Shown here piece after piece: positions 9,661-22,547 of a stretch of DNA of 64,000 nucleotides (positions are counted from its first letter, which is position 1; each line of letters opens with the position of its first letter). The stretch spans positions 1,184,001 to 1,248,000 of the forward strand of contig OZ241981.1 of NCBI GenBank assembly GCA_965204345.1. Direction: 5' to 3'. Below the pieces are notes generated by a model, which was not told where the DNA came from, made no database searches, and was given only the letters and a program-made list of their open reading frames with translations. The DNA is from Nitrosopumilus sp. (lineage in GTDB: Archaea; Thermoproteota; Nitrososphaeria; Nitrososphaerales; Nitrosopumilaceae). The position numbers and the translations under genes are program-made.

Positions 9661-11124
9661 TTATTGGAATGGATCTATGAACGGAGAATTCACTATGTAA
9701 TCACTGTTTATAGGTCGTGCAATGCTTACTGACAGCATGTCATCTGCTCGAAATGAATCAATATCAGATTTTGTTTCAAGAATTTTTGCAGATTCGGAAT
9801 TATTCCATTCAACTAGATAAATTCTCCACATCGGACTATAATTTTCATCACCGAGCGCAGCTGCGGCAATTCCTGGCTGAAATCCTAATGATCCAGAACC
9901 AAGAATTCCATTTTTGAATTGGAACAAATCAGCTGCTGCCGAACTAGCAATAAGATTGGCAGAGCTTGGAGATGATGCAACTCCCATTGATTCGGCAGTA
10001 CCTCCAGGAGTTGCGTCTGTAACGATATAGTAAATAGTTCGTCCATCAGGGCCCCAACCTCTGTGAGCCACAAATGTCACAGTCATTTCTTCCTCATTGA
10101 TCTCAGTTATTTGACCGCCGCTGTAAGACATTTCATCGGTAATTTCTTTATCAGCACGAACTATCATTTGTCCATCTGGCCAACTGATTTGAGGAGCATT
10201 TAGTATTACTCCTGTTTCATTGAATTCAATTCTGCCGCCTTCCTCAGCTGCAATTATATCTGCTGCTGATGTAAATTCAATTTCTCTTTGTCCGGCTTTC
10301 CACGTAACTTCAATTATGGAACTTAGTGCACTATATTCTGATTCTTGTGAAGGTGTATGGGAAATTACTTCATTTTGAAATCCATAAATTCCATCACCCT
10401 TGACTCCATTTTTGAAAATAAATAATTTTTGTAAAATATTTTCAGGAACACTTGCAAGTAATGGGGCAGCTTCCACTTTCCACTCTTGCCTCTCAGAGAT
10501 TGTTTTTGCATAATCTTCATCACTGCTATCAGTAATGATGTACAGAACTTGATTGCCCTCATAGATTCCTTTATGCATTGGAATTACGGCTGGAACACTT
10601 GTTCTTGATAATAATGATGATGGCTCTTCTTTTTCTAGTTCAATTTTTTGCATGATTACTTCTGTTGGCTGTCCCCTAATCCAGCCGTCAACACTTACAG
10701 TGGAGGTAAATTCTTTAGAATCAGGAGAATGTAGTCCTAGGGCAGCTCCTGTAAATTCAAATGAGCCTGAATTTTTTTGTAGATCAATTAATGATAAACC
10801 ATAGATTGTTTTTCCATCCACTGTCCATGTGGGTTGGCCTTTTGATTCCTGAGGACTAATCTCATGTAAAACTATAATTTGTACAGGCTCACTTGAGGTA
10901 AATGTCATAGAGCCGTCATATATTGTTCCCTCATTAGGAGATAGGATTAATGCGAGTTGGTGATTTTCATGTCCTTGACCCGGATCTTGTGAAGAAACTA
11001 TAGTTTCAGTAAAATGGATTTTTTTTCTTGAACCTGCATCAACTAATTGATCAGATGCTGAGGATGCAAAAATTATGCCAATTGTAAAGATCCCAATTAT
11101 TAGCAGAGCTGAAAGTTTTTTCAA
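9661..11124 (-). CDS. Secreted protein with two internal repeat domains, unknown function
   Basis: Signal peptide; repeated units YIITDSS...FKNG...GFQ...YS and YIVTDAT...FKNG...GFQ...YSP. Confidence 0.7.
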   Translation of the reverse strand: MKKLSALLIIGIFTIGIIFASSASDQLVDAGSRKKIHFTETIVSSQDPGQGHENHQLALILSPNEGTIYDGSMTFTSSEPVQIIVLHEISPQESKGQPTWTVDGKTIYGLSLIDLQKNSGSFEFTGAALGLHSPDSKEFTSTVSVDGWIRGQPTEVIMQKIELEKEEPSSLLSRTSVPAVIPMHKGIYEGNQVLYIITDSSDEDYAKTISERQEWKVEAAPLLASVPENILQKLFIFKNGVKGDGIYGFQNEVISHTPSQESEYSALSSIIEVTWKAGQREIEFTSAADIIAAEEGGRIEFNETGVILNAPQISWPDGQMIVRADKEITDEMSYSGGQITEINEEEMTVTFVAHRGWGPDGRTIYYIVTDATPGGTAESMGVASSPSSANLIASSAAADLFQFKNGILGSGSLGFQPGIAAAALGDENYSPMWRIYLVEWNNSESAKILETKSDIDSFRADDMLSVSIARPINSDYIVNSPFIDPFQ

Positions 11125-11162
11125 TGAGTAATCTTAAGACTGTCCCCTTAAATGATTTTATC

Positions 11163-12566
11163 TTAATTGATTTTATCTAGTGCAAATTCATTATGTAAAG
11201 CACGTACAGCTGCATTGGTATCAGAATTTTTTACAACAAAAGCCAGATTAAGCTCAGAAGAGCCCTGTGTGATCATTGATACATTTACTTTATTTTTCTC
11301 AATTGCGCCAAAAACTTTCGAAGCAACGCCTACAGTTCCCCTCATTCCTGATCCAATTAGTGCAATTATGGCGACATTTGTGGTAATATCTAATTTTTTG
11401 ATAATCTTGCCCAATAGCTCCAGTTCTAACGCACTAACAGCTTTATCAAGATCAGTGTTTTTAACTACAATTGTAATGCTTGATTCAGATGGATTTTGAG
11501 AGATCATCATTACGTTGATTCCAGCTTTTGCTAGTGTTGCAAATATTTTTGCTGCAGTTCCAGGAGTTCCTACCATACTGCCTCCTTGAACATCAATTAA
11601 CCCGTTATTTCGTACATTACTGACACATTTTACCGTATTTTTTACAGATGGGGATGTTGAGGCCGAAACTAGGGTCCCTTCATTTTTGATATTGAAGGAA
11701 TTTCTAATTTTCATTGGGATTTTCTTTGTGAGCAGAGGTTCAAATGTACGTGGGTGTATTTGCTTTGCACCAAACAGAGCCATTTCAATTGCTTCAATGT
11801 ATGATACCTCTTTGAGTAATTTTGCATTTTTTACAATTTTTGGATCTGCTGTCATCAGTCCATCTACATCACTCATTAACCAGATCTCATCTGCTTTTAT
11901 GCAAGAACCTATAATTGTCGCAGAATAATCAGAACCGCCCCTGCCAAACGTGGTTACATGCCCATGCTGATCAGCGCCGACAAATCCTCCTACAACAGGT
12001 ACTGTTCCCTTTGAAAATAAGGCATCTACAGTTTTTGATACTCGTAATCTGGTTGTATCTATTAGCGGTTTTGACTCACCAAAGTTTGAATCAGTGACAA
12101 TTCCTACTTCCTTACCGGTAAGAGGAATTGATTTTTTTCCAGAATCCGCGATTGCCGATGAGATTAATTTTATAGATAGTCTTTCTCCGAATGAAAATAG
12201 GTAATCCATTGTTCTAGGAGTTACTTCTCCCAACAATACCATTCCGTCAATTAGTGCAACAAGTTCATCAAAATCTTGATCAAACTTTGAAAGTAATTTC
12301 TTTCTCAGATCAGATTTTTTGATAGTTTGTTTTGCTAATTGTTTGTGTCTATTGATAATTTTTGATGCAAGCTGTTCGGCTTTGGATTTATTTTCTTTTT
12401 TTATGGATTCTGAAATTTCTATTAAATCATCTGTAGTGCCACTTATTGCAGAACATACAACAACAATTTGGTTTTTCTTTGATAATTCATTAAGGTGTGT
12501 AGCTACTGCTTGAATATCTTTTGTGGCAGAAATTGATGTCCCACCATATTTTATTACGAGTCTCAA
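11163..12566 (-). CDS. lysC: Aspartate kinase
   Basis: VIKYGGTS, TTFGRGGSDYSA, DVDGLMTADP and two C-terminal ACT domains. Confidence 0.95.
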   Translation of the reverse strand: MRLVIKYGGTSISATKDIQAVATHLNELSKKNQIVVVCSAISGTTDDLIEISESIKKENKSKAEQLASKIINRHKQLAKQTIKKSDLRKKLLSKFDQDFDELVALIDGMVLLGEVTPRTMDYLFSFGERLSIKLISSAIADSGKKSIPLTGKEVGIVTDSNFGESKPLIDTTRLRVSKTVDALFSKGTVPVVGGFVGADQHGHVTTFGRGGSDYSATIIGSCIKADEIWLMSDVDGLMTADPKIVKNAKLLKEVSYIEAIEMALFGAKQIHPRTFEPLLTKKIPMKIRNSFNIKNEGTLVSASTSPSVKNTVKCVSNVRNNGLIDVQGGSMVGTPGTAAKIFATLAKAGINVMMISQNPSESSITIVVKNTDLDKAVSALELELLGKIIKKLDITTNVAIIALIGSGMRGTVGVASKVFGAIEKNKVNVSMITQGSSELNLAFVVKNSDTNAAVRALHNEFALDKIN

Positions 12567-12601
12567 TCCAAAATATCTGAACTAGTTAATCTTTAAATGC
12601 T

Positions 12602-13348
12602 TTAACTTTCGACGCGCGGAGCCAAGTAAAAGTGAATTCTGCCGATATTTGCCACCTTGAATTCAATTCTAAGCGGTTTTGAGCTTGAGAATTCACATGT
12701 GATTGAGCCTGCATTAGAGCCCACAGCTTTTACTACCGGATTTAGGTATTCAAGACTGTAAGTACCAATACTAGATTCTTTTGAAGATATTTCTTCTATA
12801 TCCTTATCATCCTTATCTAAATCAATTACAACTTCGCCAGAATCGCCTTTTCCTGAAAAATCTCCTTTTGAATCTGATGTTTGTATTGTAAGATAATCAG
12901 ATACGACTTGTACATCACCGAGAATTTTATCAAATTTTGAAGAAGCCAAAATGATTTTTGAGTCATATGGGATTTTTGGTAGCGGTGTATCAGTTGCCGA
13001 ACTTTCAATTAAACGCATTTTGTATTTCTTGTTTTTTCCAACTGTAACAAGCAACATGTTTTGTTCTGAAATACTAATCTCTATACTGTCTTTCTTATCT
13101 GCTCTTTTGATAAGTTTTGAAAATTCGTCAATTCGTACTCCAAATTTGATGTCACTATCACATTCATATTTTTCAAATGCAGAGTTGGGCCAGGAAATAT
13201 CAATAAGAGCAACGTGGGACGGATCCATTCCCCTAAAAGTAATTCCTTCTGCTGTCGCAACAAAAGTTGCTTCTTCAACAAGTGTGGATATTGCAGAAAT
13301 TATAGCTTTTAGATCATCTGAACCGCTTGTCTTTGCGCCAAAAGTCAA
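12602..13348 (-). CDS. pcn: DNA polymerase sliding clamp PCNA
   Basis: GMDPSHVALI and C-terminal FYLAPRVE; likely start TTG 13348 within track ORF 12602..13372. Confidence 0.95.
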   Translation of the reverse strand: MTFGAKTSGSDDLKAIISAISTLVEEATFVATAEGITFRGMDPSHVALIDISWPNSAFEKYECDSDIKFGVRIDEFSKLIKRADKKDSIEISISEQNMLLVTVGKNKKYKMRLIESSATDTPLPKIPYDSKIILASSKFDKILGDVQVVSDYLTIQTSDSKGDFSGKGDSGEVVIDLDKDDKDIEEISSKESSIGTYSLEYLNPVVKAVGSNAGSITCEFSSSKPLRIEFKVANIGRIHFYLAPRVES

Positions 13349-13382
13349 ATCAATTTTCCTGACTATATGCATTTTTTAAGTT

Positions 13383-13700
13383 TTATGTATAGTCACGCCA
13401 AGTGTATTTACATTTTAGACAACGATAGAATCTAGTTGTAGGTTCGTCTGCACTTCTAGTTTGAAACATCCAACCAACTGCTTCATCATGTCCGCATTTT
13501 TCACAATCTATCTTGATTGTCGGTAGAGATTCTTCTCCTTCATTTCCTTCAAAAGCAAGCAGTGAGAAATCAGGTTCTTCTTCAGTAACAGTTTTTTTAG
13601 TTTTTTTTGCTTCTTCACCTTCTGTATAACCGCATTTGGAACATTGAAGAGCAGAACCGTTGTTCTTTAATTTGACCTCACATTTGGGGCAAAATTTCAA
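13383..13700 (-). CDS. tfs: Transcription factor S (TFS/RpoM)
   Basis: Two Zn ribbons (CPKC...CSKC; CEKC...CLKC) and QTRSADEP motif. Confidence 0.93.
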   Translation of the reverse strand: MKFCPKCEVKLKNNGSALQCSKCGYTEGEEAKKTKKTVTEEEPDFSLLAFEGNEGEESLPTIKIDCEKCGHDEAVGWMFQTRSADEPTTRFYRCLKCKYTWRDYT

Positions 13701-13701
13701 T

Positions 13702-13980
13702 CTAATTTACCTTAATTTTAGAATTAAACAGTTGCTTGAACTCTTCGGCCATTTTAATTGCTGATTCGGTAGCCTTTTTGATTTCACCTAGTGGTTTTGA
13801 ACTAGAATTAATTCTCATCCAACATTCATTGGTAAGAGGATGTTTTACAATGACACCTGCAAAATCAATGTTTGATGCTTTTAGTAGCTCATGCTGAATT
13901 ATGTATAAGATTCCTATATCAGTTTCAGTGATAGAAAGGCTGATTTCTTTAGGCTCAGAATTGATCACTTGTGCGTTCAT
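13702..13980 (-). CDS. rpoL: RNA polymerase subunit L (Rpo11)-like protein
   Basis: FAGVIVKHPL motif, size 92 aa, position in the rpoL-tfs-pcn cluster. Confidence 0.8.
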   Translation of the reverse strand: MNAQVINSEPKEISLSITETDIGILYIIQHELLKASNIDFAGVIVKHPLTNECWMRINSSSKPLGEIKKATESAIKMAEEFKQLFNSKIKVN

Positions 13981-14018
13981 GTATTCAGAAAAAGCACTTA
14001 TTGCGGATATAAATCATT

Positions 14019-14567
14019 ATGAGCGTTAAGATGGGAGAAAGCAGAATTTCAGAGATTTCACTAGTAAAAAACAAGGATGAGTACGTATCTGATGAAAATA
14101 TTGAGATAAATGTCCAATTTTCAGTTGAAGGAGACCTTAGAAAAGCCTTCAACGAGGCTAATTGGACCAAGGCCTACAACAATAATGATGTTTCATTCAA
14201 AATGAAATATGGTATAAAATTGACCTCTGGCGGGTTCAGAAAGAAGGAATTGGGAAGGACAATAGACACCTATAGAAAGGCATCAATATTTTGGACAAGA
14301 AATCCAAAATTGGTCAATCCAATCAAAGATAGAAGGATTTGGGTGCAAGTCGCTAAAAACTTTGAGCCATTTATCAGATTATCAGAAGAGGAGGTAAGAG
14401 AAGAGCTGTTTGACTTTGATGAAAAATTTGTATTCAAGGCATCAGATTTAGGAAAAGGCAGACACAAGATCGGAGCTGAAACCTTTGCATCATGGCAAAA
14501 ACATGATTTTACAGAAACAGGAAATGTAAAAAACAGTTCAAATGAAATTGAAGTCACAATCAATTAG
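14019..14567 (+). CDS. Hypothetical protein
   Basis: 182 aa ORF divergent from rpoL; its stop codon lies within the left island repeat. Confidence 0.7.
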   Translation: MSVKMGESRISEISLVKNKDEYVSDENIEINVQFSVEGDLRKAFNEANWTKAYNNNDVSFKMKYGIKLTSGGFRKKELGRTIDTYRKASIFWTRNPKLVNPIKDRRIWVQVAKNFEPFIRLSEEEVREELFDFDEKFVFKASDLGKGRHKIGAETFASWQKHDFTETGNVKNSSNEIEVTIN

Positions 14568-14641
14568 GTACCCTCAAGATTTACTAAAAATAACGACTAG
14601 GAATTTTTAACAGTAATTAAATTGTCTTAATGGCAGTTAGA

Positions 14642-15510
14642 ATGAGTTTTGAAAATTCAGAATAAGCTTTGCAGGAATTTCTTGATTCTTGTTATGCAAT
14701 GTCACATAGTTCTGCAATTGTTAATGGTTACAAAAATGCAATTATAGGTAAAACTAAGGGATTCAGAATCTTTCTTACAAAAAGATAAGATTTGATGAAA
14801 TTAAATTAGTGGTTAGAATAAAAAGCAAAAATTTTGGTGTGTGTCAGATTCTAAAAATTATGTGATTTTTTTAGATAAACCTGTACTAATGCCAAATTCT
14901 ATCAAGCAATTTTTCTATGCTATAAAGGGATATCTTATTCATTTGAGAGTTAACATATATTTAGATAAATGCATATAAGATATCAAACTTCCAGAGATTC
15001 TAAGAAAACGTAAAGAAGCAATAACAAAAAATATTTTGGTTAGAACTTTGGGAGTTGTATCATTTAAGCTTTGAGTTGTATTTCTTGTTGTAATATCATC
15101 AGGAATGAGAATTGGAGAAATTAGTGATCTCAAACTATCAGATATTGATTTTGCATGTACTCCAACTAAAATTAGAATCAGGGCAGAAACTACAAAGACA
15201 AGAGAAGCAAGAAAAATATTTCTTATATCAGAGACAGTAATTGCTCTAAAAGATTATCTCGGAAAATATTTTGATTGAAATGAAATACATGAAAATATTC
15301 ATCTTAAAAATAGAAATATTTTTAGTAGAGCGTCTATTAGAAAATATATTAGAAAAGAGAATATCAATGAACAGAAAGGCATCAGTAGATCTTTTAGAGA
15401 ATATACTTATGAGTAATTAAAGAATATTCCATTTTCATGCTCTAAGAGAGTTTTTCTATAGAATTTTAAGTAGTGTTGCAGACTTAAATTTTGCCCATGT
15501 TCTGATTAGA
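14642..15510 (+). pseudogene. Tyrosine recombinase/integrase pseudogene
   Basis: Manual translation gives SSGMRIGE (box I Arg, ~15096-15119), TKTREAR and HFHALR...FAHVL (box II, from ~15430); multiple in-frame stops and frameshifts; cut off before the catalytic Tyr region by the inverted-repeat element. Confidence 0.88.
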
Positions 15511-15833
15511 CGATTCTGTTGTGTTCATGAAGGATATACATGAATCTGTTTGATCGCACAAGTTTTAATCAAGACATACAAACAGTACTGGTAAATTCCA
15601 GCGATCAGATCATCAAAATTTATCAGAACTGTCCGTTGCATTTACCGTGTTCATCTTAAAATTATCAGGATTTGCTTTGATGTGGTTGTTTTCTCTAGTT
15701 CCTTGATCAATGTCAGAGAAATAATCTCACTACACCAAATGAACATCAGTTTGAAAATCAGGAAACACCTCAAGATTCAACAATGTCTCAGATTTATCTC
15801 TCATGCCTATCCCTCATGAACGCAACAGAATCG
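15511..15833. mobile_element. 323-bp MITE-like element with 33-bp terminal inverted repeats
   Basis: 15511-15543 CGATTCTGTTGTGTTCATGAAGGATATACATGA matches the reverse complement of 15801-15833 (CGATTCTGTTGCGTTCATGAGGGATAGGCATGA) at 29/33 positions; no internal transposase ORF seen. Confidence 0.8.
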
Positions 15834-16037
15834 GCTGTCCATATGCGTCTGATGTGTCTTGCACTGACCTGCATGGTCCGGGCCAGAACTGCTACACCTG
15901 TGCCCTTTTGACGCTGCCATATGATGTATCTGATCTGATCTTCTTTTAGTCTGGTTCTCTTCATTATTCGTGATCGATATATGTGGTAATAATCCCTTGC
16001 ATGAAGCCTGAGCTTAGGCGGACATAATTTTCGTACA
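15833..16037 (-). mobile_element. Left end of an IS481-family element: terminal repeat plus N-terminal HTH fragment of the transposase
   Basis: Minus strand begins TGTACGAAAATTATGTCCGCCTAA at 16037 (TGT end typical of IS481); ATG 15964 gives MKRTRLKEDQIRYIIWQRQKGTGVAVLARTMQVSARHIRRIWTA, truncated at the MITE end; locally higher GC. Confidence 0.7.
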
Positions 16038-16039
16038 AT

Positions 16040-16742
16040 AGAGATTTGTGTCCTCTAACATCAATCATAAATGCTGGAATAGGAAATATAGATGAAGATT
16101 AATCTATATTCAATTCTCTCTTCTTTTTTAATATTATTTCATCAATTTTTGAAGTAGAGAGATCTGGTATTATTTTAATAAAAAAACTAAGTAATCATCT
16201 TGTGTCTGCAGAAATTAATTGTATAGATAGAATTGGAATTTTATTTTGTAATTTCTCTAGTTGATTTTCCATTTTCTCAAATTCTTTATGTTCTTCACTT
16301 TTGAAATCAGGAAACATTTGACAGCTTAGTTTCATTACATGCATGTCAATTTCTTTACTCTTTATTCTAGGTGTATAATCATTAGTTATCAATACATCAT
16401 TATGTTTTTTCGTTCTATGATAAACCCTAAAAATCTGTCATCGTTAAGATTAGAATCTAAACCAACTTAGTTCTAATCAATATCTGGTTCTGTGATATGT
16501 ACTGACAGTTTGACATTTTTTCTTAACTCTTTCTTAGTTATATTATAAGATTCTATCACGGATAGATTTTTTGTTGCTCTCTCAGATATTTTTTGATTAC
16601 CATCAGATTTTTTATTATCTAATTCTTTCAAAACTGTTGAACAAATAATCTCAACTTTATTCGAATCTAATTCTTTGCACCAATCTACACTCAAAATATC
16701 ATAATGCAAAAAAATATGTGTCTAGAGAGCATATTTTATCAT
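16040..16742 (-). pseudogene. PIN-domain (PIN_4-like) protein pseudogene
   Basis: Fragments read MIKYAL*THIFLHYD...VDW...STVLKELDNKK...NDDRFLG...LITNDYTPRIKS, the PIN acidic-motif pattern broken by stops and frameshifts (track ORFs 16473..16709 and 16195..16392 are pieces). Confidence 0.7.
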
Positions 16743-16863
16743 AAAATTACTTATTTTTTATTGGATTATTGCTTTTCTCATGATCGGAAATGCGAGAAAA
16801 CTGCATATTTTGCCTAATTAGACGAATTTATCACTAACTATGTCTTAGTCAATACAAATCATC

Positions 16864-17598
16864 ATGAAAATATTAAAAAGGCTAGATCTCGTAAGATGGG
16901 ATATAATGCTTGAGGCAAGGGAGTATTCGTCAATAACTGTCGCACAACTTCTAGGTCGTCTACTAAATGACATTGAATCAAAAGCTGATCCAGGAGAACT
17001 TTTTGTAAGAGGCTCTTTAAATATTCCATTAACATATCCAAAAGTATCAATAATTGGTTCCAGAAAAGCATCCACACAAGGAATTGCAAATGCTCAAAAA
17101 ATTGCAAAGAAATTGATTGAAAATCAAGTAATTATTGTCAGTGGACTTGCTGAAGGTATTGATACTGCAGCACATGTAACAGCATCAAGCATGAATGGGA
17201 AAACTATTGCTGTAATAGGTACACCATTAGATAAAGTATATCCAAAAATAAATTATGAACTTCAACAAGAATTAGTGAAAAGTCATCTTGTAGTTTCACA
17301 ATTTCCAACAGGTTATCCAATTACTGGGAAAAATTTTGTAATACGAAACAGAACAATGGCACTTATTTCTGATGCTTCAGTAATTGTAGAAGCTGGAAAA
17401 ACAAGTGGGTCAAAACATCAAGGATGGGAAACTCTTAGAATGGGAAGACCGTTATTCATTTGGGAATCTGTTGTGAATGATAAAGAACTAGACTGGCCAA
17501 CAGAAATGATTGAGCATGGAGCAGTAGAATTATCTGATCCATCAGTCATACTTGAAGTACTACCAACACGTTTTGAAGTGATCGATGTGTTTCAATAA
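16864..17598 (+). CDS. dprA: DprA/Smf (SLOG-fold) protein, ShosA-like; real start possibly ATG 16906
   Basis: VSIIGSRKAS, IVSGLAEGIDTAAH, TIAVIGTPLD, FVIRNRTMALIS and VIVEAGKTSGS DprA motifs; short, without the usual SAM or C-terminal wHTH domains. Confidence 0.9.
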   Translation: MKILKRLDLVRWDIMLEAREYSSITVAQLLGRLLNDIESKADPGELFVRGSLNIPLTYPKVSIIGSRKASTQGIANAQKIAKKLIENQVIIVSGLAEGIDTAAHVTASSMNGKTIAVIGTPLDKVYPKINYELQQELVKSHLVVSQFPTGYPITGKNFVIRNRTMALISDASVIVEAGKTSGSKHQGWETLRMGRPLFIWESVVNDKELDWPTEMIEHGAVELSDPSVILEVLPTRFEVIDVFQ

Positions 17599-17603
17599 TA
17601 ATT

Positions 17604-18260
17604 ATGGAAATTACTAATATAGAATTTGGGTCTCTTCTTACGTATTCTCCACGTGGAAGTACCGATGAAGAGGCTCGTTCAAGAACTTTCATGGCGACAT
17701 TGAAGAGTGATGGATGTTTAGAAAAAGAAAAAATCCCAATGACAGAATATATTGCACAGGGAATTAAGAATAATTTAGAAAAACTTCCTTTTGCTCATTT
17801 CTTTAAAGTAAATCCTATTCTTATTCCAACTCCAAGTAGTTCTCATACTAAACCAAATACACTTTGGGTTCCACAACGTTTAGCAATTGCTTTAGTGAAT
17901 AATGGTCTGGGAAAGAAAGTTAGTTCATGTCTTGAACGAACAAAGCCTTTACGTAAATCTCATACAAGCTCTAGTAAAGATAGGCCAAAAGCTCAAGAAC
18001 ATTATGACACAATGGCAGTTCAAAAAGAACTTTCTGAGCCAGATGAGATTTTATTAATAGATGATTTGATAACAAGAGGATCTACATTCGTTGGAGCTGC
18101 AATTAGATTGAGAGATGCATTCCCAAATGCCAATATTCGTGCATTTGCAGGGATAAAAACAATAAGTAAGTCGGAAAATTTTAAGAAAATTTATCATCCA
18201 TGTATAGGAGAAATCAATTTTAACGGTGAAAATTCATTCAATGATTGTATTGAAGAATAA
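17604..18260 (+). CDS. ComF-like phosphoribosyltransferase, ShosT-like
   Basis: LIPTPSS and the PRPP-binding loop ILLIDDLITRGST; 5 bp downstream of dprA. Confidence 0.85.
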   Translation: MEITNIEFGSLLTYSPRGSTDEEARSRTFMATLKSDGCLEKEKIPMTEYIAQGIKNNLEKLPFAHFFKVNPILIPTPSSSHTKPNTLWVPQRLAIALVNNGLGKKVSSCLERTKPLRKSHTSSSKDRPKAQEHYDTMAVQKELSEPDEILLIDDLITRGSTFVGAAIRLRDAFPNANIRAFAGIKTISKSENFKKIYHPCIGEINFNGENSFNDCIEE

Positions 18261-18525
18261 AATTTGATATTGTTCAGTCATAGAATTAGAGAACTAGATT
18301 GCAATTCATATAAACCATAGCTTGATGTCTACTTCCAGCAGTAAATCTATCAAAAATATTGCTTTTTGTGTCATCATTAGGCTCAAAAAATCACAAAATA
18401 GAAAAAAATAGAACTGGTCAACAAATGCAATCCTGTAATATACTAACATGTGATTGGAAAATCAGTTAATATAAAAAATATTCCAGTCAATTAGGGATAT
18501 AAGGAACTTTTTTCTGTAATTAACA

Positions 18526-18678
18526 ATGGCAAAATATGACGGTTTGTTAGGACAACCAATACTTGAAGTTGAAGAACCGGATAAAGAAGGCGGAATTACA
18601 TTTATCTTCAAAGATAACAGGTTTATGTTCATAAAAGCAGTTGATGGTAAGATTGAGACCGTATCAATTCCAGAATAG
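18526..18678 (+). CDS. 50-aa microprotein, paralog 1
   Basis: MAKYDGLLGQPILEVEEPDKEGGITFIFKDNRFMFIKAVDGKIETVSIPE*; TATA-like GATATAAG about 25-30 bp upstream; similar to the next ORF. Confidence 0.75.
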   Translation: MAKYDGLLGQPILEVEEPDKEGGITFIFKDNRFMFIKAVDGKIETVSIPE

Positions 18679-18687
18679 GTGATAAAA

Positions 18688-18834
18688 ATGGAAAAATTTG
18701 ACGCAATCAAAATGCTAGAACTTGTAAGAGTAGAAGATCCTGATTCGGATGGCGGATTGACTTTAATTTTTCAGGAAGACAAGACTTTGAAAATCAGGAT
18801 TGTGGATGGAAGGCTAGTTTCAGAATTTGTGTAA
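18688..18834 (+). CDS. 48-aa microprotein, paralog 2
   Basis: MEKFDAIKMLELVRVEDPDSDGGLTLIFQEDKTLKIRIVDGRLVSEFV*; preceded by archaeal SD-like AGGTGAT. Confidence 0.75.
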   Translation: MEKFDAIKMLELVRVEDPDSDGGLTLIFQEDKTLKIRIVDGRLVSEFV

Positions 18835-18835
18835 A

Positions 18836-19330
18836 CTAGTTTTTCACATGTTTTTCATAATACCCAATAGCCAATTCTTGTACCTTAGATTGAATTGAGC
18901 CAGGTCTTTCATCCCGAATTTTTTCAATTGCATCGTTTGCTGTAAATTTTTTGTATTTTATGAAATAACATGCAAGTATAGTACCAGCTCTTCCCAGTCC
19001 AGCTGCACAATGAACCATTACAGACTGATCATTTTTAATTTGTTCATGAATAAAATCTACAGCAGAATCTATCCTATCCATGTCAGGAGCAGTCAAGTCA
19101 GGAGTTGGCACGTGCAGATATCCAATATCTTGCACCCATTCATCAGGTAATGCTTGTTCAGTCATGGTGACAATTGATTTTACACCTTGGTTTAGTAACC
19201 AATCAAATTCATCAGAGCTGGTAGGAATGCCTGAGCCAGCTAATTTTTCCTCGATTAACCATGAAAAATTTGTTGGTTTTTTGGTAATTTTTCCATGAAC
19301 CTTTCTCCAGATATTGCCAGGTTTACTCAT
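18836..19330 (-). CDS. Dual-specificity protein phosphatase
   Basis: VHCAAGLGRAG CX5R active-site motif. Confidence 0.93.
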   Translation of the reverse strand: MSKPGNIWRKVHGKITKKPTNFSWLIEEKLAGSGIPTSSDEFDWLLNQGVKSIVTMTEQALPDEWVQDIGYLHVPTPDLTAPDMDRIDSAVDFIHEQIKNDQSVMVHCAAGLGRAGTILACYFIKYKKFTANDAIEKIRDERPGSIQSKVQELAIGYYEKHVKN

Positions 19331-19380
19331 GACAATATTAGAATAATTCTATATTTTTAGTATTACTAAGCTTGATTTTA

Positions 19381-20022
19381 TCATGATGCCATTGCACGAA
19401 CAGGAGACCCTGTTGCATCTTTTAATTTTAGAGGAAGAATTGTGAAATTAAATTCATTAGAATTTATTTTATTCATGTTTGCTAAATTCTCAACTATCAA
19501 AATATTGTTTTTTGATAAGACATGATGAACACAAAAGGATTCGTCTTTTCCCAAATCAATACTTGGGGAATCAATTCCAACTAGATTGATTTTTTTTGAT
19601 GAAAGATATTTTGCAGATGACAAGTCTAATCCAGGATTTTCAGTAAAATAATTATGTTTTTTTAGATTTTTTTGCCACCCAGTATGGAAAAAAAGGGACG
19701 AGTAATTTGGAATTTTGCCATTCTTTTTTTCAAATGAAACAATATCAGACTTTGTGATAGTATTATTTTTTGATTTTTCAAGTTTTAGAAGAATTCCTCT
19801 TCCAATCAACCTGTCAAGGGGAATTTGATTGATTTTTAGGCCGTTTTTCACGAAATGATATGGTGCGTCAATATGAGTGCCTGTATGTGAACTCATGAAT
19901 AACAATTCAAGATTATATCCGTCGGTTTTGATATTTGACCAATCAATGAATTGTGGTGCAGGAGAACCAGGGAAACTGGGAATTGATTCAGATAATGTAA
20001 GTGAAAGATCTATGGGTCTCAT
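19381..20022 (-). CDS. Cyclase/kynurenine formamidase-family metal hydrolase
   Basis: HTGTHIDAPYH, VGIDSPS and GSPVRA motifs. Confidence 0.9.
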   Translation of the reverse strand: MRPIDLSLTLSESIPSFPGSPAPQFIDWSNIKTDGYNLELLFMSSHTGTHIDAPYHFVKNGLKINQIPLDRLIGRGILLKLEKSKNNTITKSDIVSFEKKNGKIPNYSSLFFHTGWQKNLKKHNYFTENPGLDLSSAKYLSSKKINLVGIDSPSIDLGKDESFCVHHVLSKNNILIVENLANMNKINSNEFNFTILPLKLKDATGSPVRAMAS

Positions 20023-20083
20023 ATCAGCATAACGTAATGGTAATTAATCAATTTTTGAAAAATCAAAGGTTAAATACTGTCTG

Positions 20084-20356
20084 ATGAAAAAAAATCTTGT
20101 GCCTACAGCATATGTTCTATTAAATTCTGACTTGGGATCTGATGAATCAATCATTAATGAAGTAAAACAGATGCTAACTGAAGAAGAAGTCAAATTTGAG
20201 GTTCAAGGTGTCTATGGGGTATACGATATTGTATTGAAATTATCCTCAAATGACGCTGAAAAATTACGTGCAATCATTACCAACAAAGTCAGAAAAATTG
20301 GCAAAGTTCAATCAACATTAACCATGATGGTAATAGAAGAACAAGAAAACCTATAG
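20084..20356 (+). CDS. Lrp/AsnC ligand-binding domain protein
   Basis: AYVLLN...VYGVYDIV...KIGKVQSTLTM pattern of stand-alone RAM domains. Confidence 0.85.
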   Translation: MKKNLVPTAYVLLNSDLGSDESIINEVKQMLTEEEVKFEVQGVYGVYDIVLKLSSNDAEKLRAIITNKVRKIGKVQSTLTMMVIEEQENL

Positions 20357-21502
20357 TTTCTTTATCGCATCAATTACTTTAAGCATTTGAGATTCAGTGT
20401 TGAAGAAGTGAGGGGAAGCACGTACAATTGTTTTGTCCATAATTTCTCTTACTGCTAAAATAATATTTTGTTTTTCAAGTTTGTCAACAACTTGCTGAGA
20501 ATCAATTCCTTTGATGTTAAAAGAAACAATGCTGGTTCTAAGATTCTGATCGTCAGGTCCGTACAAAACAATATTTTGGATTTTTGATAATTCCTCTCTG
20601 AATAGATTTGAAAGATATTGATTTTTTTTATGGATATTGCTCATTCCAAAATTTAGCATATAGTTTGCAGAAGATGCAAGGCCAACTATTCCCACATAAT
20701 TTCTAAAACCGGTCTGAAATTTATCTGGTAATTCTTTATACGCAAGTTTTGAATCGTCATAAATTATCGCAGATTCGCCGCCAATGGTTTTCGGTTCCAA
20801 TAGTTTGCTTGAGTGTCTATTACAATAAAACAACCCTGTACCCATCGGGCCACAAAGCCATTTGGATCCATTAAATGACATAAAATCACACTTTATCTTT
20901 GAAACATCAACATCTCCAATGCATCCTATAGTTTGTGCACTGTCAATAAAAAATGGAACCTTGTTATCAAGAATTTTTCCTATTTCTTCAACAGGCAAAA
21001 TTGAACCTGTATTATACAGAGCATGACTAAGTGCGACTAATTTTGTGTCCTGATTTACAAATGATTTCAAATCGCCTAATTGAAAAAATCCATTATTGTC
21101 AATAGGCAGATTTTGTATTGAAATCTGTTCTTTTAGTTTTATCCAAGGATAAAAATTTGAATGATGTTCATGAGTCATTCCACGAATAATTATGTTAGAA
21201 TCATTATCAAAAGTCAATCCATTTGCAACAAAATTAATCCCGTCAGTTGTGCTTTGGGTTAGAATTACTTCATCGGGTTGAGAGGAAATAATTTTTGCAA
21301 TAGTTTTTCTTACAATTTGTAGTTTTTCAGCAACAAAATATTCAGAATCCTTTGAATCCGGACCGATAGAACTGTATTTGGTCAGAAATTCCTTCATTGC
21401 CTCAATACTTTGATTGGGCATCAAGGATACAGATGCATTATTTAGGTAAATTTTGTCAGAGGATGGAAAATCATGTAAAATATCTTTTGATATCAAATTC
21501 AT
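20351..21502 (-). CDS. Class V PLP aminotransferase (cysteine desulfurase-like)
   Basis: YLNNAS, IDSAQ, NGSKWLCGPMG and VRASPHFFN motifs. Confidence 0.88.
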   Translation of the reverse strand: MNLISKDILHDFPSSDKIYLNNASVSLMPNQSIEAMKEFLTKYSSIGPDSKDSEYFVAEKLQIVRKTIAKIISSQPDEVILTQSTTDGINFVANGLTFDNDSNIIIRGMTHEHHSNFYPWIKLKEQISIQNLPIDNNGFFQLGDLKSFVNQDTKLVALSHALYNTGSILPVEEIGKILDNKVPFFIDSAQTIGCIGDVDVSKIKCDFMSFNGSKWLCGPMGTGLFYCNRHSSKLLEPKTIGGESAIIYDDSKLAYKELPDKFQTGFRNYVGIVGLASSANYMLNFGMSNIHKKNQYLSNLFREELSKIQNIVLYGPDDQNLRTSIVSFNIKGIDSQQVVDKLEKQNIILAVREIMDKTIVRASPHFFNTESQMLKVIDAIKKL

Positions 21503-21525
21503 TATTATATCTGTAAAATCTCAAA

Positions 21526-22122
21526 ATGGTGTTGGATAAAAATCCTGATCACATTATAAAGAATGATTTAACGCAGATTCAAATCAAGTTTGAACAGAAT
21601 AATCCAAATATTGTATTATGTTCAAATTCATTCCATAAAATTGAATTTATTAATAGACTAATCAATTCAACTAAAGATCCAATAATTATCATGGACATGG
21701 ATTTGCTTTATACCGGTTATGTTCAGTCGGGAATGATTCAAAAAAAGGATAATGTAATATTTTTTTATCCAGATAAAACAAATTGGGGGGAGAAATTATC
21801 TGAAATTGGTTTCAAAGTATCAAAGGAAAGATTTTTGGTGATAATTGATTCGTTTAATGGAGTATACAATACATTTGATAATTTAGAATCTGCCAGATTC
21901 ATAAATTCATGTATAATGCTATTGTCTTCGATTGGAAATCATGTAAAATCATCTGTCTTGATTGTGGGCATGGCAAGAAAAAAAGAAGATGATAGTTGGG
22001 TACTAGCACCAGGGGGAAAATATATCATCAAATCAGAAAAGACGGGAGTATATTTTCTTAAAAAAACTGCAGGTGATTTGCTCATTAGCACTTTGGATAA
22101 ATTTGAGGATAATTCAAAATAA
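21526..22122 (+). CDS. Hypothetical protein, possibly a degenerate RecA-like fold
   Basis: 198 aa; IIIMDMD and Walker B-like LVIIDS, no intact Walker A. Confidence 0.55.
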   Translation: MVLDKNPDHIIKNDLTQIQIKFEQNNPNIVLCSNSFHKIEFINRLINSTKDPIIIMDMDLLYTGYVQSGMIQKKDNVIFFYPDKTNWGEKLSEIGFKVSKERFLVIIDSFNGVYNTFDNLESARFINSCIMLLSSIGNHVKSSVLIVGMARKKEDDSWVLAPGGKYIIKSEKTGVYFLKKTAGDLLISTLDKFEDNSK

Positions 22123-22158
22123 AAAGTAATTTTTAGCGTCGTATCTGCGATCAGAATT

Positions 22159-22193
22159 TTAAACGCCGTTATAAAATATTAAACGCCGTTATA
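22159..22193. promoter_or_regulatory. Tandem 15-bp repeat TTAAACGCCGTTATA upstream of the ferredoxin gene
   Basis: Exact copies at 22159-22173 and 22179-22193 (20-bp period), each with an AACG-N-CGTT dyad, just upstream of a TATA-like TTATATTAA. Confidence 0.55.
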
Positions 22194-22247
22194 CAGCCAT
22201 ATTTTTAGGCAAATTATATTAAGACCAAATCTCAAATTAATTTTGTT

Positions 22248-22547
22248 ATGCCAGTAGGAATTATTCCAGACATCAGCGAACAAATGTGTATAGGATGTGC
22301 ACTATGTGTAGAGATCTGTACCACACTTGGACCAGATGTCCTTAGAGTAAAACCAGTTGAAGGCTGGAAGAGAGGTAAAGCATTTGTCTTCTACCCAGAA
22401 AGATGTATTTCTGATGGTGCATGCATTGGTGTATGCCCAACAAAAGCAATCTTTTGGATGCGACCAATGGACTTTACTGTTGGACAACCAGTTCCACTCT
22501 ACAAGAACTCAGTCTTCGTCAAAGGTTGGACTGAATTAATCGATTAG
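22248..22547 (+). CDS. 2x[4Fe-4S] ferredoxin
   Basis: CIGCALCVEIC and CISDGACIGVCP cluster motifs. Confidence 0.92.
   Translation: MPVGIIPDISEQMCIGCALCVEICTTLGPDVLRVKPVEGWKRGKAFVFYPERCISDGACIGVCPTKAIFWMRPMDFTVGQPVPLYKNSVFVKGWTELID

Follow-up and report, generated by a model that had tools for sequence, protein, structure and literature searches.

Organization of the gene pair

The window analyzed here is a stretch of 64,000 nucleotides from a Nitrosopumilus sp. (assembly GCA_965204345.1, contig OZ241981.1, positions 1,184,001 to 1,248,000), and it carries, within a small inserted islet, two adjacent genes that encode a DprA-like protein (gene A) and a single-domain phosphoribosyltransferase (PRTase; gene T). 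Both open reading frames (ORFs), of 244 and 218 aa, are uninterrupted in the ORF list of the window (Table 1). We interpret the pair, with a probability of about 0.65, as a minimal module of the ShosTA type, which would act as a toxin-antitoxin or abortive-infection system with T as the putative toxin and A as the putative antitoxin. A sequence-only reading of the same DNA had described two intact ORFs 5 bp apart, a DprA/SLOG protein and a PRTase with the loop ILLIDDLITRGST, standing among broken islet genes in an ammonia-oxidizing archaeon. That description holds: the coordinates, the Pfam families and the loop residues agree with it, and the integrase, PIN and transposase genes of the islet are all disrupted. 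The host genome encodes an archaeal AmoA, and its nearest named relatives are Nitrosopumilus metagenome-assembled genomes (MAGs), which together make ammonia oxidizer a fair description of the host.

Gene A matches the Pfam family DNA_processg_A (PF02481) at 3.5e-49 (167 bits), with additional weak matches to the SLOG-family entries LDcluster4 (1.9e-4) and STALD (0.044). The protein extends ~40 residues before and ~20 residues after the Rossmann fold. In the alignment its homologues start ~14 codons downstream of the longest-ORF start, and the true start is probably M15 at 16906, giving a protein of 230 aa. The sole Pfam match of T is a weak one to PRTase_2 (0.0017). Within the loop that would bind 5-phosphoribosyl-1-pyrophosphate (PRPP), D153, D154, T157 and G159 are invariant among 32 relatives, while R112, K118, R127 and H133 are conserved basic residues elsewhere in the protein. 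The translation of T contains four cysteines and no CxxC pair, and hence no zinc ribbon. The distance between A and T lies between -4 and +12 nt in 56 of 74 relatives; the full range, from -103 to +270 nt, takes in truncated T ORFs. A scan for bacterial-type promoters and terminators, which leaves archaeal promoters outside its scope, found 10 sites where 9.6 were expected, and no terminator.

Relationship of A to DprA and ShosA proteins

The scores of A and T were read against PADLOC models calibrated on the E. coli APEC O1 proteins. With the broad ShosA model (PDLC03961), A reaches 230.1 bits, where true ShosA scores 285 bits and the housekeeping DprA protein Smf 194.5 bits. With the dprA equivalog model TIGR00732 it reaches 144.1 bits, against a cut-off of 191.15. 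At the residue level, R67 and R161 of A (244-aa numbering) align with R139 and R234, on which ShosA depends for binding single-stranded DNA (ssDNA), and these arginines, located in the GSR and RNR motifs, are invariant across 34 sequences. In a maximum-likelihood tree, the 37 A proteins from such cassettes form one clade with a long stem and 100/100 support that excludes both E. coli ShosA and five housekeeping DprAs; the tree includes a single ShosA on a very long branch, whose position relative to A is unsure. In the host genome, A is the only DprA gene. Meanwhile, each of four bacterial cassette carriers has a separate DprA, present as a full-length frame of 376-444 aa in three of them and as fragments only in the fourth (G335).

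Two further observations concern the relatives of A. In a record labeled Candidatus Paceibacter (L082), the A protein nests within the Nitrosopumilaceae clade beside a Cenarchaeum sequence, a placement that reflects either a recent transfer or a mis-binned contig. Three other loci (L119, L120 and L122, in G269, G276 and G325) hold a stand-alone A of the cassette type, in open frames of 298-358 aa that carry an N-terminal extension of 80-130 residues and have no adjoining PRTase gene.

Relationship of T to ShosT and ComF proteins

With the broad PADLOC ShosT model (PDLC03962), T scores 86.6 bits (5.4e-25), where true ShosT reaches 179-180 bits and GntX, ranked next, 27.8 bits. Since Smf, a housekeeping protein, also scores high on the broad ShosA model, the T match is the informative one of the two. 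Profile-profile comparison, using a T-family profile of 121 representatives, aligned T with the long ShosT family across the PRTase domain (131 columns, 92.9% probability, E 3.8e-7) and with enterobacterial GntX/ComF over 77 columns (96.6%, E 5.3e-10); long ShosT against GntX gave 58.6%. The ComF comparator profile consists of enterobacterial GntX only (at least 68% identity), which makes the ranking of ComF and ShosT for T a soft one. These family profiles supersede a single-sequence hhalign comparison of E. coli ShosT with the T profile (25 columns, 7.8%).

In the alignment, R112, K118 and D153/D154 of T fall on R277, K283 and D334/D335 of a 426-aa long ShosT homologue, of which K283 and D334/D335 are numbered K280 and D331/D332 in the published work. 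The PRPP residues needed for ShosT toxicity, namely the DD loop and the counterpart of K280, are therefore kept in T, while the counterpart of ShosT R285 is uncertain, with R127 lying four positions off. The predicted fold was compared in the ESM Atlas using the T homologue P0074 (53% identical) as query: the nearest clusters are proteins of ~210-230 aa from Bacteria and Nitrososphaerota (template modeling (TM) score 0.91-0.98), and ComF families come next after its own family (TM 0.61-0.65). Against the comF equivalog TIGR00201, T scores 18.8 bits with a cut-off of 233.55. Long ShosT homologues measure 406-430 aa and combine PF00702 or PF13419 with PF00156, whereas T has neither the HAD/pyrophosphatase domain of long ShosT nor the zinc ribbon of ComF. 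On sequence grounds, T is a single-domain member of the ComF/ShosT-like PRTase group.

Distribution and mobility of the cassette

In a profile search of 1.84 billion representatives, relatives of T numbered 2299 at E<=1e-3, of which 670 passed E<=1e-30. Lengths among the best 150 run from 135 to 242 aa, within a large family of ~215-aa proteins. In species-representative genomes, 163 T relatives were confirmed, and the best 80 were kept for locus analysis. Going by record titles, 76 of these best 80 are archaeal and four bacterial; the archaeal carriers include Nitrosopumilaceae, Nitrosotalea, Nitrososphaera, Bathyarchaeia, DPANN groups, Methanosarcinales and Thermoplasmata. The pairing is strict: A immediately precedes T on the same strand at 74 of the 80 loci, and five of the six remaining loci are cut off by a contig edge. 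In one Nitrosopumilus MAG, the A-T pair is itself preceded closely by a second PRTase-domain ORF, of 311 aa (L051:1069-2001; PF00156, 2.9e-7).

The pair is accessory and mobile, not core. T occurs in 12 of 61 close relatives and, across the class, in 45 of 301 genomes (16 of 67 genera), while A occurs in 58 of the 301 (19 of 67 genera); these tallies take in two unpublished genomes, G317 and G273, each with an intact pair. The pair occupies the site found in the window in two genomes (G029 and G015), with a remnant in a third (G017), and lies tens of kb away or on other contigs in five more (G007, G014, G036, G002 and G004). Mobile or defense genes account for 18 of 128 flanking ORFs in relatives and comprise integrases, transposases, Cas1, a type I restriction subunit, a restriction endonuclease, PIN proteins and nucleotidyltransferases; 53 of the 128 have no Pfam match at E<=1e-5. 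Moreover, all four matching IMG/VR viral contigs carry the cassette in the order A then T, and their GC content of 55-65% indicates that they do not come from this archaeon.

Selection and one-sided decay

Purifying selection acts on both genes. By the Nei-Gojobori method, the ratio of nonsynonymous to synonymous substitution rates (dN/dS) between the window and L027 is 0.17 for A and 0.18 for T; pairwise values between the window and close relatives are 0.16-0.19 for A and 0.13-0.21 for T, and close pairs generally give 0.12-0.25. Among the orphan A genes, no orphan-orphan pair had a dS below 0.8.

In the census of the 301 genomes, loci were classed from match tables, and doubtful ones were checked by stop-to-stop profile searches. 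Both genes are intact at 31 loci, including the window, G317 and G273. At 14 loci an intact A accompanies a T damaged by in-frame nonsense, frameshift or truncation, and at 11 loci A is intact while T is gone and unrelated genes follow, so that A is intact with T broken or gone at 25 loci; the reverse, a damaged A with an intact T, occurs at 0. The remaining classes are small: both genes damaged (2 loci), A damaged with no T (4 loci, as flagged by the match search), a T fragment alone (3 loci) and one near-full orphan T, found in G002, which keeps an orphan A elsewhere in its genome. Stop flags in A of G133, G175, G315 and G146 lay at match edges; the first three genes were classed as intact after a frame check, and G146 (ambiguous) and G115 (contig end) are left out of the counts. 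Intact A genes that have lost T include one at the window's own site (G222) and one with a transposase in place of T (G002). In four cases, a T pseudogene beside an intact A carries a single nonsense codon: TGA in G166, TAA in G225, TGA in G224 and TAG in G128 (L141-L144). The stops lie at differing positions, which suggests that T was inactivated independently each time.

An overlapping census of 87 loci counts 70 intact pairs, with nine loci at which T is damaged and A intact against one in the reverse state. These patterns are consistent with cells tolerating the loss of T, and an intact T beside a broken A is almost never seen. Such one-sided decay is what a toxin and its antitoxin would be expected to leave behind, and it counts against two equal partners in a cooperative pathway.

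The inserted islet and its surroundings

The limits of the islet were obtained by comparing positions 11000-22500 of the window with 41 genomes of the genus. In most of them, among which are G012, G003, G005, G021 and G009, the left flank (to 14568) abuts the right flank (from 18484), which defines the insert. Apart from the pair, its genes are broken. The integrase matches PF00589 with 36.6 bits and contains two in-frame TGA codons, and a 278-aa relative maps onto it in two frames (14630-14785 and 14853-15368). Similarly, a 234-aa relative of the PIN protein maps in two frames (16742-16404 and 16425-16057); in L027, an intact 234-aa PIN gene adjoins A. The transposase is reduced to a 55-aa N-terminal helix-turn-helix (HTH) piece (15794-15964, minus strand). 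Another copy in the genome is a 247-aa open frame with an rve core domain, related sequence occurs at 16 other matches in the genome, and the rve transposase of L030 has no match within the islet. The IS481 label given in the sequence-only reading can be taken only as far as an insertion sequence (IS) of the rve family.

Table 1. Coordinates of the gene pair and of the islet features in the window.
Feature	Coordinates	Strand	Evidence or remark
Gene A, DprA-like putative antitoxin, Rossmann-fold domain only	16864..17598	+	244-aa longest ORF, PF02481, PADLOC ShosA
Spacer TAATT, 5 nt, from A stop to T ATG	17599..17603	+	Sequence
Gene T, single-domain ComF/ShosT-like PRTase, putative toxin	17604..18260	+	218 aa, PADLOC ShosT
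Predicted PRPP-binding loop ILLIDDLITRGST, T residues 149-161	18048..18086	+	Conservation and alignment with E. coli ShosT
Inserted islet bearing the cassette, 3.9 kb	14569..18483		Flanks contiguous in relatives; empty-site alignment (G012)
Left direct repeat TCAATTAGG, 9 nt, att-like	14560..14568	+	Overlaps stop codon of ORF 14019..14567
Right direct repeat TCAATTAGG, 9 nt	18488..18496	+	Empty-site alignment with G012
Tyrosine-integrase pseudogene	14630..15368	+	Frameshift and 2 TGA
IS debris	15508..15964	-	rve-family HTH piece and ~330-bp repeat unit
PIN-domain pseudogene	16057..16742	-	Frameshift near 16404-16425; PIN_4 3.6e-4

Several side observations concern this region. A unit of ~330 bp (15508-15836) with 36-nt imperfect inverted ends (86% complementary) occurs six more times in the host genome, with 86-92% identity; it has the appearance of a miniature inverted-repeat transposable element that arose from the rve-family IS represented by the overlapping HTH piece. 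The 3' end of ORF 14019..14567 is a reused integration spot, since what lies between the two flanks differs among relatives: G029 has a cassette-bearing insert of ~1.8 kb, G017 a remnant of ~1 kb and G036 an insert of ~4.8 kb, while the left flank is interrupted in G014 and G007. Just beyond the islet, in the conserved right flank, two tandem ORFs of 50 and 51 aa (18526-18834) are similar to each other (EEPDKEGGITFIF, EDPDSDGGLTLIF) and have no Pfam match. Further along, the last ~260 nt of a ferredoxin-like ORF (22248-22547) match a second, distant place at 82-94% identity in nearly every genome of the genus, which suggests a conserved paralogue.

Comparison with E. coli ShosTA and proposed mechanism

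ShosTA of E. coli, known from strains APEC O1 and KTE181 and from ShosA structures including 8ZVA and 9VZO, is a type IV toxin-antitoxin and abortive-infection system, a type in which the toxin and the antitoxin do not bind each other directly; APEC O1 is the strain studied by Pu et al. (PMC11961720). According to the accounts in PMC11961720 and PMC12961424, ShosT binds PRPP and disturbs nucleotide metabolism and replication, the D331A/D332A substitution abolishes its toxicity and K280E makes it less toxic. The same reports describe ShosA as an ssDNA-binding protein that offsets the damage through recombination, with the toxin released by viral shut-off or by ssDNA. The Nitrosopumilus pair resembles this system in several respects: it is an operon of two genes in which the DprA-like gene precedes the PRTase gene, its adjacent genes match the same broad PADLOC models, it keeps the DD loop, the lysine equivalent to K280 and the ssDNA-binding arginines of the antitoxin, and it resides on a mobile element, an integrase islet here and a P2-like prophage in E. 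coli.

By this comparison, the pair would constitute a self-contained, horizontally mobile abortive-infection or addiction cassette of a minimal ShosTA kind. T would bind PRPP through its invariant DD-x2-T-R-G loop together with R112, K118, R127 and H133, and, if left unchecked, would drain or misuse it. Either course would disturb nucleotide metabolism and DNA replication, leading to cell arrest or death. A may offset this damage indirectly, through ssDNA binding and recombinational repair, or it might instead inhibit T directly. The host genome (G000) has a RadA at C1:862286-862999, and the recombinase partner of A would here be RadA rather than RecA. Viral shut-off of host expression, or a viral flood of ssDNA in the cell, would strip away the protection given by A and allow T to act. 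A toxin released once this protection is gone would make the pair addictive, which would explain why it is the sole intact unit of a decayed islet. A toxin consisting of a PRTase only is plausible, because in E. coli the pyrophosphatase domain boosts toxicity only modestly (R56A mutant).

The sequence-only reading had likewise seen a minimal archaeal variant of ShosTA, with a PRTase that lacks an extra hydrolase domain as its toxin and a DprA-like protein as its antitoxin. Both broad models and the single-domain architecture of T support the variant, and the loss of T beside a retained A fits the assigned roles. It had also taken the position of the PRTase gene downstream of dprA for a difference from ShosTA; this was mistaken, as APEC O1 also has shosA followed by shosT. 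The survey and the dN/dS analysis that it proposed showed a patchy pair at differing sites, hence neither core nor syntenic, under purifying selection. Two other comparisons that it proposed gave divided answers. Against ShosT and ShosA hidden Markov models (HMMs), the broad pair matched and the narrow pair failed; against the competence families, A formed a clade of its own in the tree, and T, by profile comparison, did not favor ShosT over ComF/GntX.

These failures belong to a set of observations that weigh against the ShosTA reading. T has no match at E<=1 to the narrow E. coli-type ShosT model (PDLC03012), and A scores 65.9 bits with the narrow ShosA model (PDLC02997), below the 72.2 bits of Smf; on the same narrow models E. 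coli ShosT and ShosA reach 973 and 765 bits. The broad ShosA model does not discriminate ShosA from Smf, and among solved structures A scores higher with the competence DprA of Streptococcus pneumoniae (112.9 bits) than with ShosA (67 bits). Judged by its profile, T stands no farther from ComF/GntX than from long ShosT. A search of the PDB with the T sequence, the 32-sequence profile or the 121-sequence profile found no ShosT or ComFC chain, the matches being generic PRTases aligned through the PRPP loop (best E 0.0037). Of the residues by which ShosA contacts RecA, R206 is replaced by an invariant glutamine in the A family, and K200 aligns with K128 of A, a position that varies in the family. 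The architectures differ as well: T, at 218 aa, lacks the N-terminal HAD-like pyrophosphatase domain of E. coli ShosT (424 aa), and A, at 230-244 aa, lacks the SAM domain, the C-terminal helix and the tail of E. coli ShosA (327 aa), in which the SAM domain stabilizes and the tail destabilizes the protein. In addition, the A proteins form a separate clade and the host has RadA rather than RecA; the link to characterized E. coli ShosTA is, on this evidence, remote. The decay pattern has its own counterexample in L072, where a frameshifted A accompanies an intact T. That A survives intact without T at 11 loci may point instead to a useful role for A by itself, and the census counts come from related genomes, some of them metagenome bins with possible assembly errors, so that the loci are not independent trials. 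Finally, the toxicity, rescue and defense that short-form pairs would provide are argued by analogy.

Alternative explanations

The same toxin-antitoxin mechanism could operate without any protection against viruses, in a purely selfish addiction module that stabilizes the islet or only itself. In favor of this, the cassette is the only intact part of a decayed islet and moves between sites and across domains; no virus-related trigger or defense island is evident around the pair in the window, and in relatives mobile and defense genes make up only the 18 of 128 neighboring ORFs noted above. We nevertheless consider this unlikely. Characterized relatives of the gene pairing protect against phages, according to PMC11961720 and PMC9122126, and the viral contigs carry the cassette in the way that prophages carry defense systems. 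Furthermore, with T damaged at 14 loci and lost at 11 against 31 intact pairs, addiction is easily escaped, and a dN/dS of ~0.15 under such conditions suggests that the pair confers some benefit.

Slightly less probable still is a non-toxic, ssDNA-handling pair carried by mobile elements, in which a DprA-like mediator and a ComF-like PRTase would aid recombination or repair. DprA and ComFC act together on ssDNA in bacterial transformation. The two proteins of the pair belong to these superfamilies: A lies nearer to bona fide DprA than to ShosA, T has its best profile score with GntX, ComF clusters are the next fold neighbors of P0074 after its own family in the predicted structures, and A persists alone and intact at 11 loci. 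Cooperating partners, on the other hand, should decay alike, whereas decay runs 25 to 0 against T. T lacks the zinc ribbon, both proteins stay below the comF and dprA cut-offs (18.8 bits with TIGR00201; 144 against 191 bits with TIGR00732), and the two genes are joined in a mobile, patchy cassette instead of being dispersed core genes. In bacteria the cassette A is a paralogue beside a retained housekeeping DprA, and in the host genome, which is 99.74% complete, ComEC (PF03772) was not found. A role in competence, which the sequence-only reading had also thought less likely, is unlikely for these reasons and because the A clade stands apart from housekeeping DprA.

A very improbable third possibility is a small-molecule signaling pair, in which T would make a phosphoribosylated, nucleotide-like product and A, as a member of the SLOG superfamily, would bind that product and not DNA. 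The weak LDcluster4 and STALD matches of A would fit this scheme, as would the acceptor substrate of ShosT, unidentified even in E. coli according to PMC11961720 and PMC12961424. The match of A to DprA is far stronger (167 bits), its ssDNA-binding arginines are invariant, E. coli ShosA is reported in the same two papers to bind ssDNA, and nothing in this analysis points to a ligand. Among other known systems, PsyrTA/RqlHI also combines a DprA-like partner (A scores 83.6 bits with the PsyrA model) with a PRTase toxin domain, but its architecture is quite different: the PsyrT model spans 689 positions, of which T matches only the last ~80 (E 0.0052).

Implications for Nitrosopumilus and the ShosTA family

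In silico surveys place ShosTA among the most frequent systems in archaea (bioRxiv 10.1101/2024.10.26.620412) and describe it as enriched in Asgard archaea (PMC11291487). We found no paper that ties ShosTA to Nitrosopumilus or Nitrososphaeria, although supplementary tables may list the lineage, and our literature search turned up no archaeal or short-form pair that had been tested by experiment. The gain from the assignment itself is limited, since HMM tools already in use call pairs of this kind ShosTA. Going by PMC11961720 and PMC12961424, the questions still open in ShosTA are how ShosT uses PRPP and by what means an antitoxin that binds DNA counters a toxin acting on metabolism. A natural minimal version, with no pyrophosphatase, no SAM domain and a RadA host, could show which parts are essential and how general the RecA link is.

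A bolder and rather doubtful extension is that the short cassette forms a distinct two-domain lineage between DprA-ComF and long ShosTA, in which a bare ComF-like PRTase would be the toxin and a DprA, RadA-linked or acting alone, the antitoxin, serving abortive infection in marine ammonia oxidizers. If so, a bare ComF-like PRTase would suffice as a toxin, A would be the first recombination mediator of the DprA type to act in an archaeon, and the A genes left intact without T would have been domesticated for repair or as 'anti-addiction' genes. For the organism itself, the ShosTA-type reading makes the pair a candidate module for antiviral defense or addiction among ammonia oxidizers like Nitrosopumilus.

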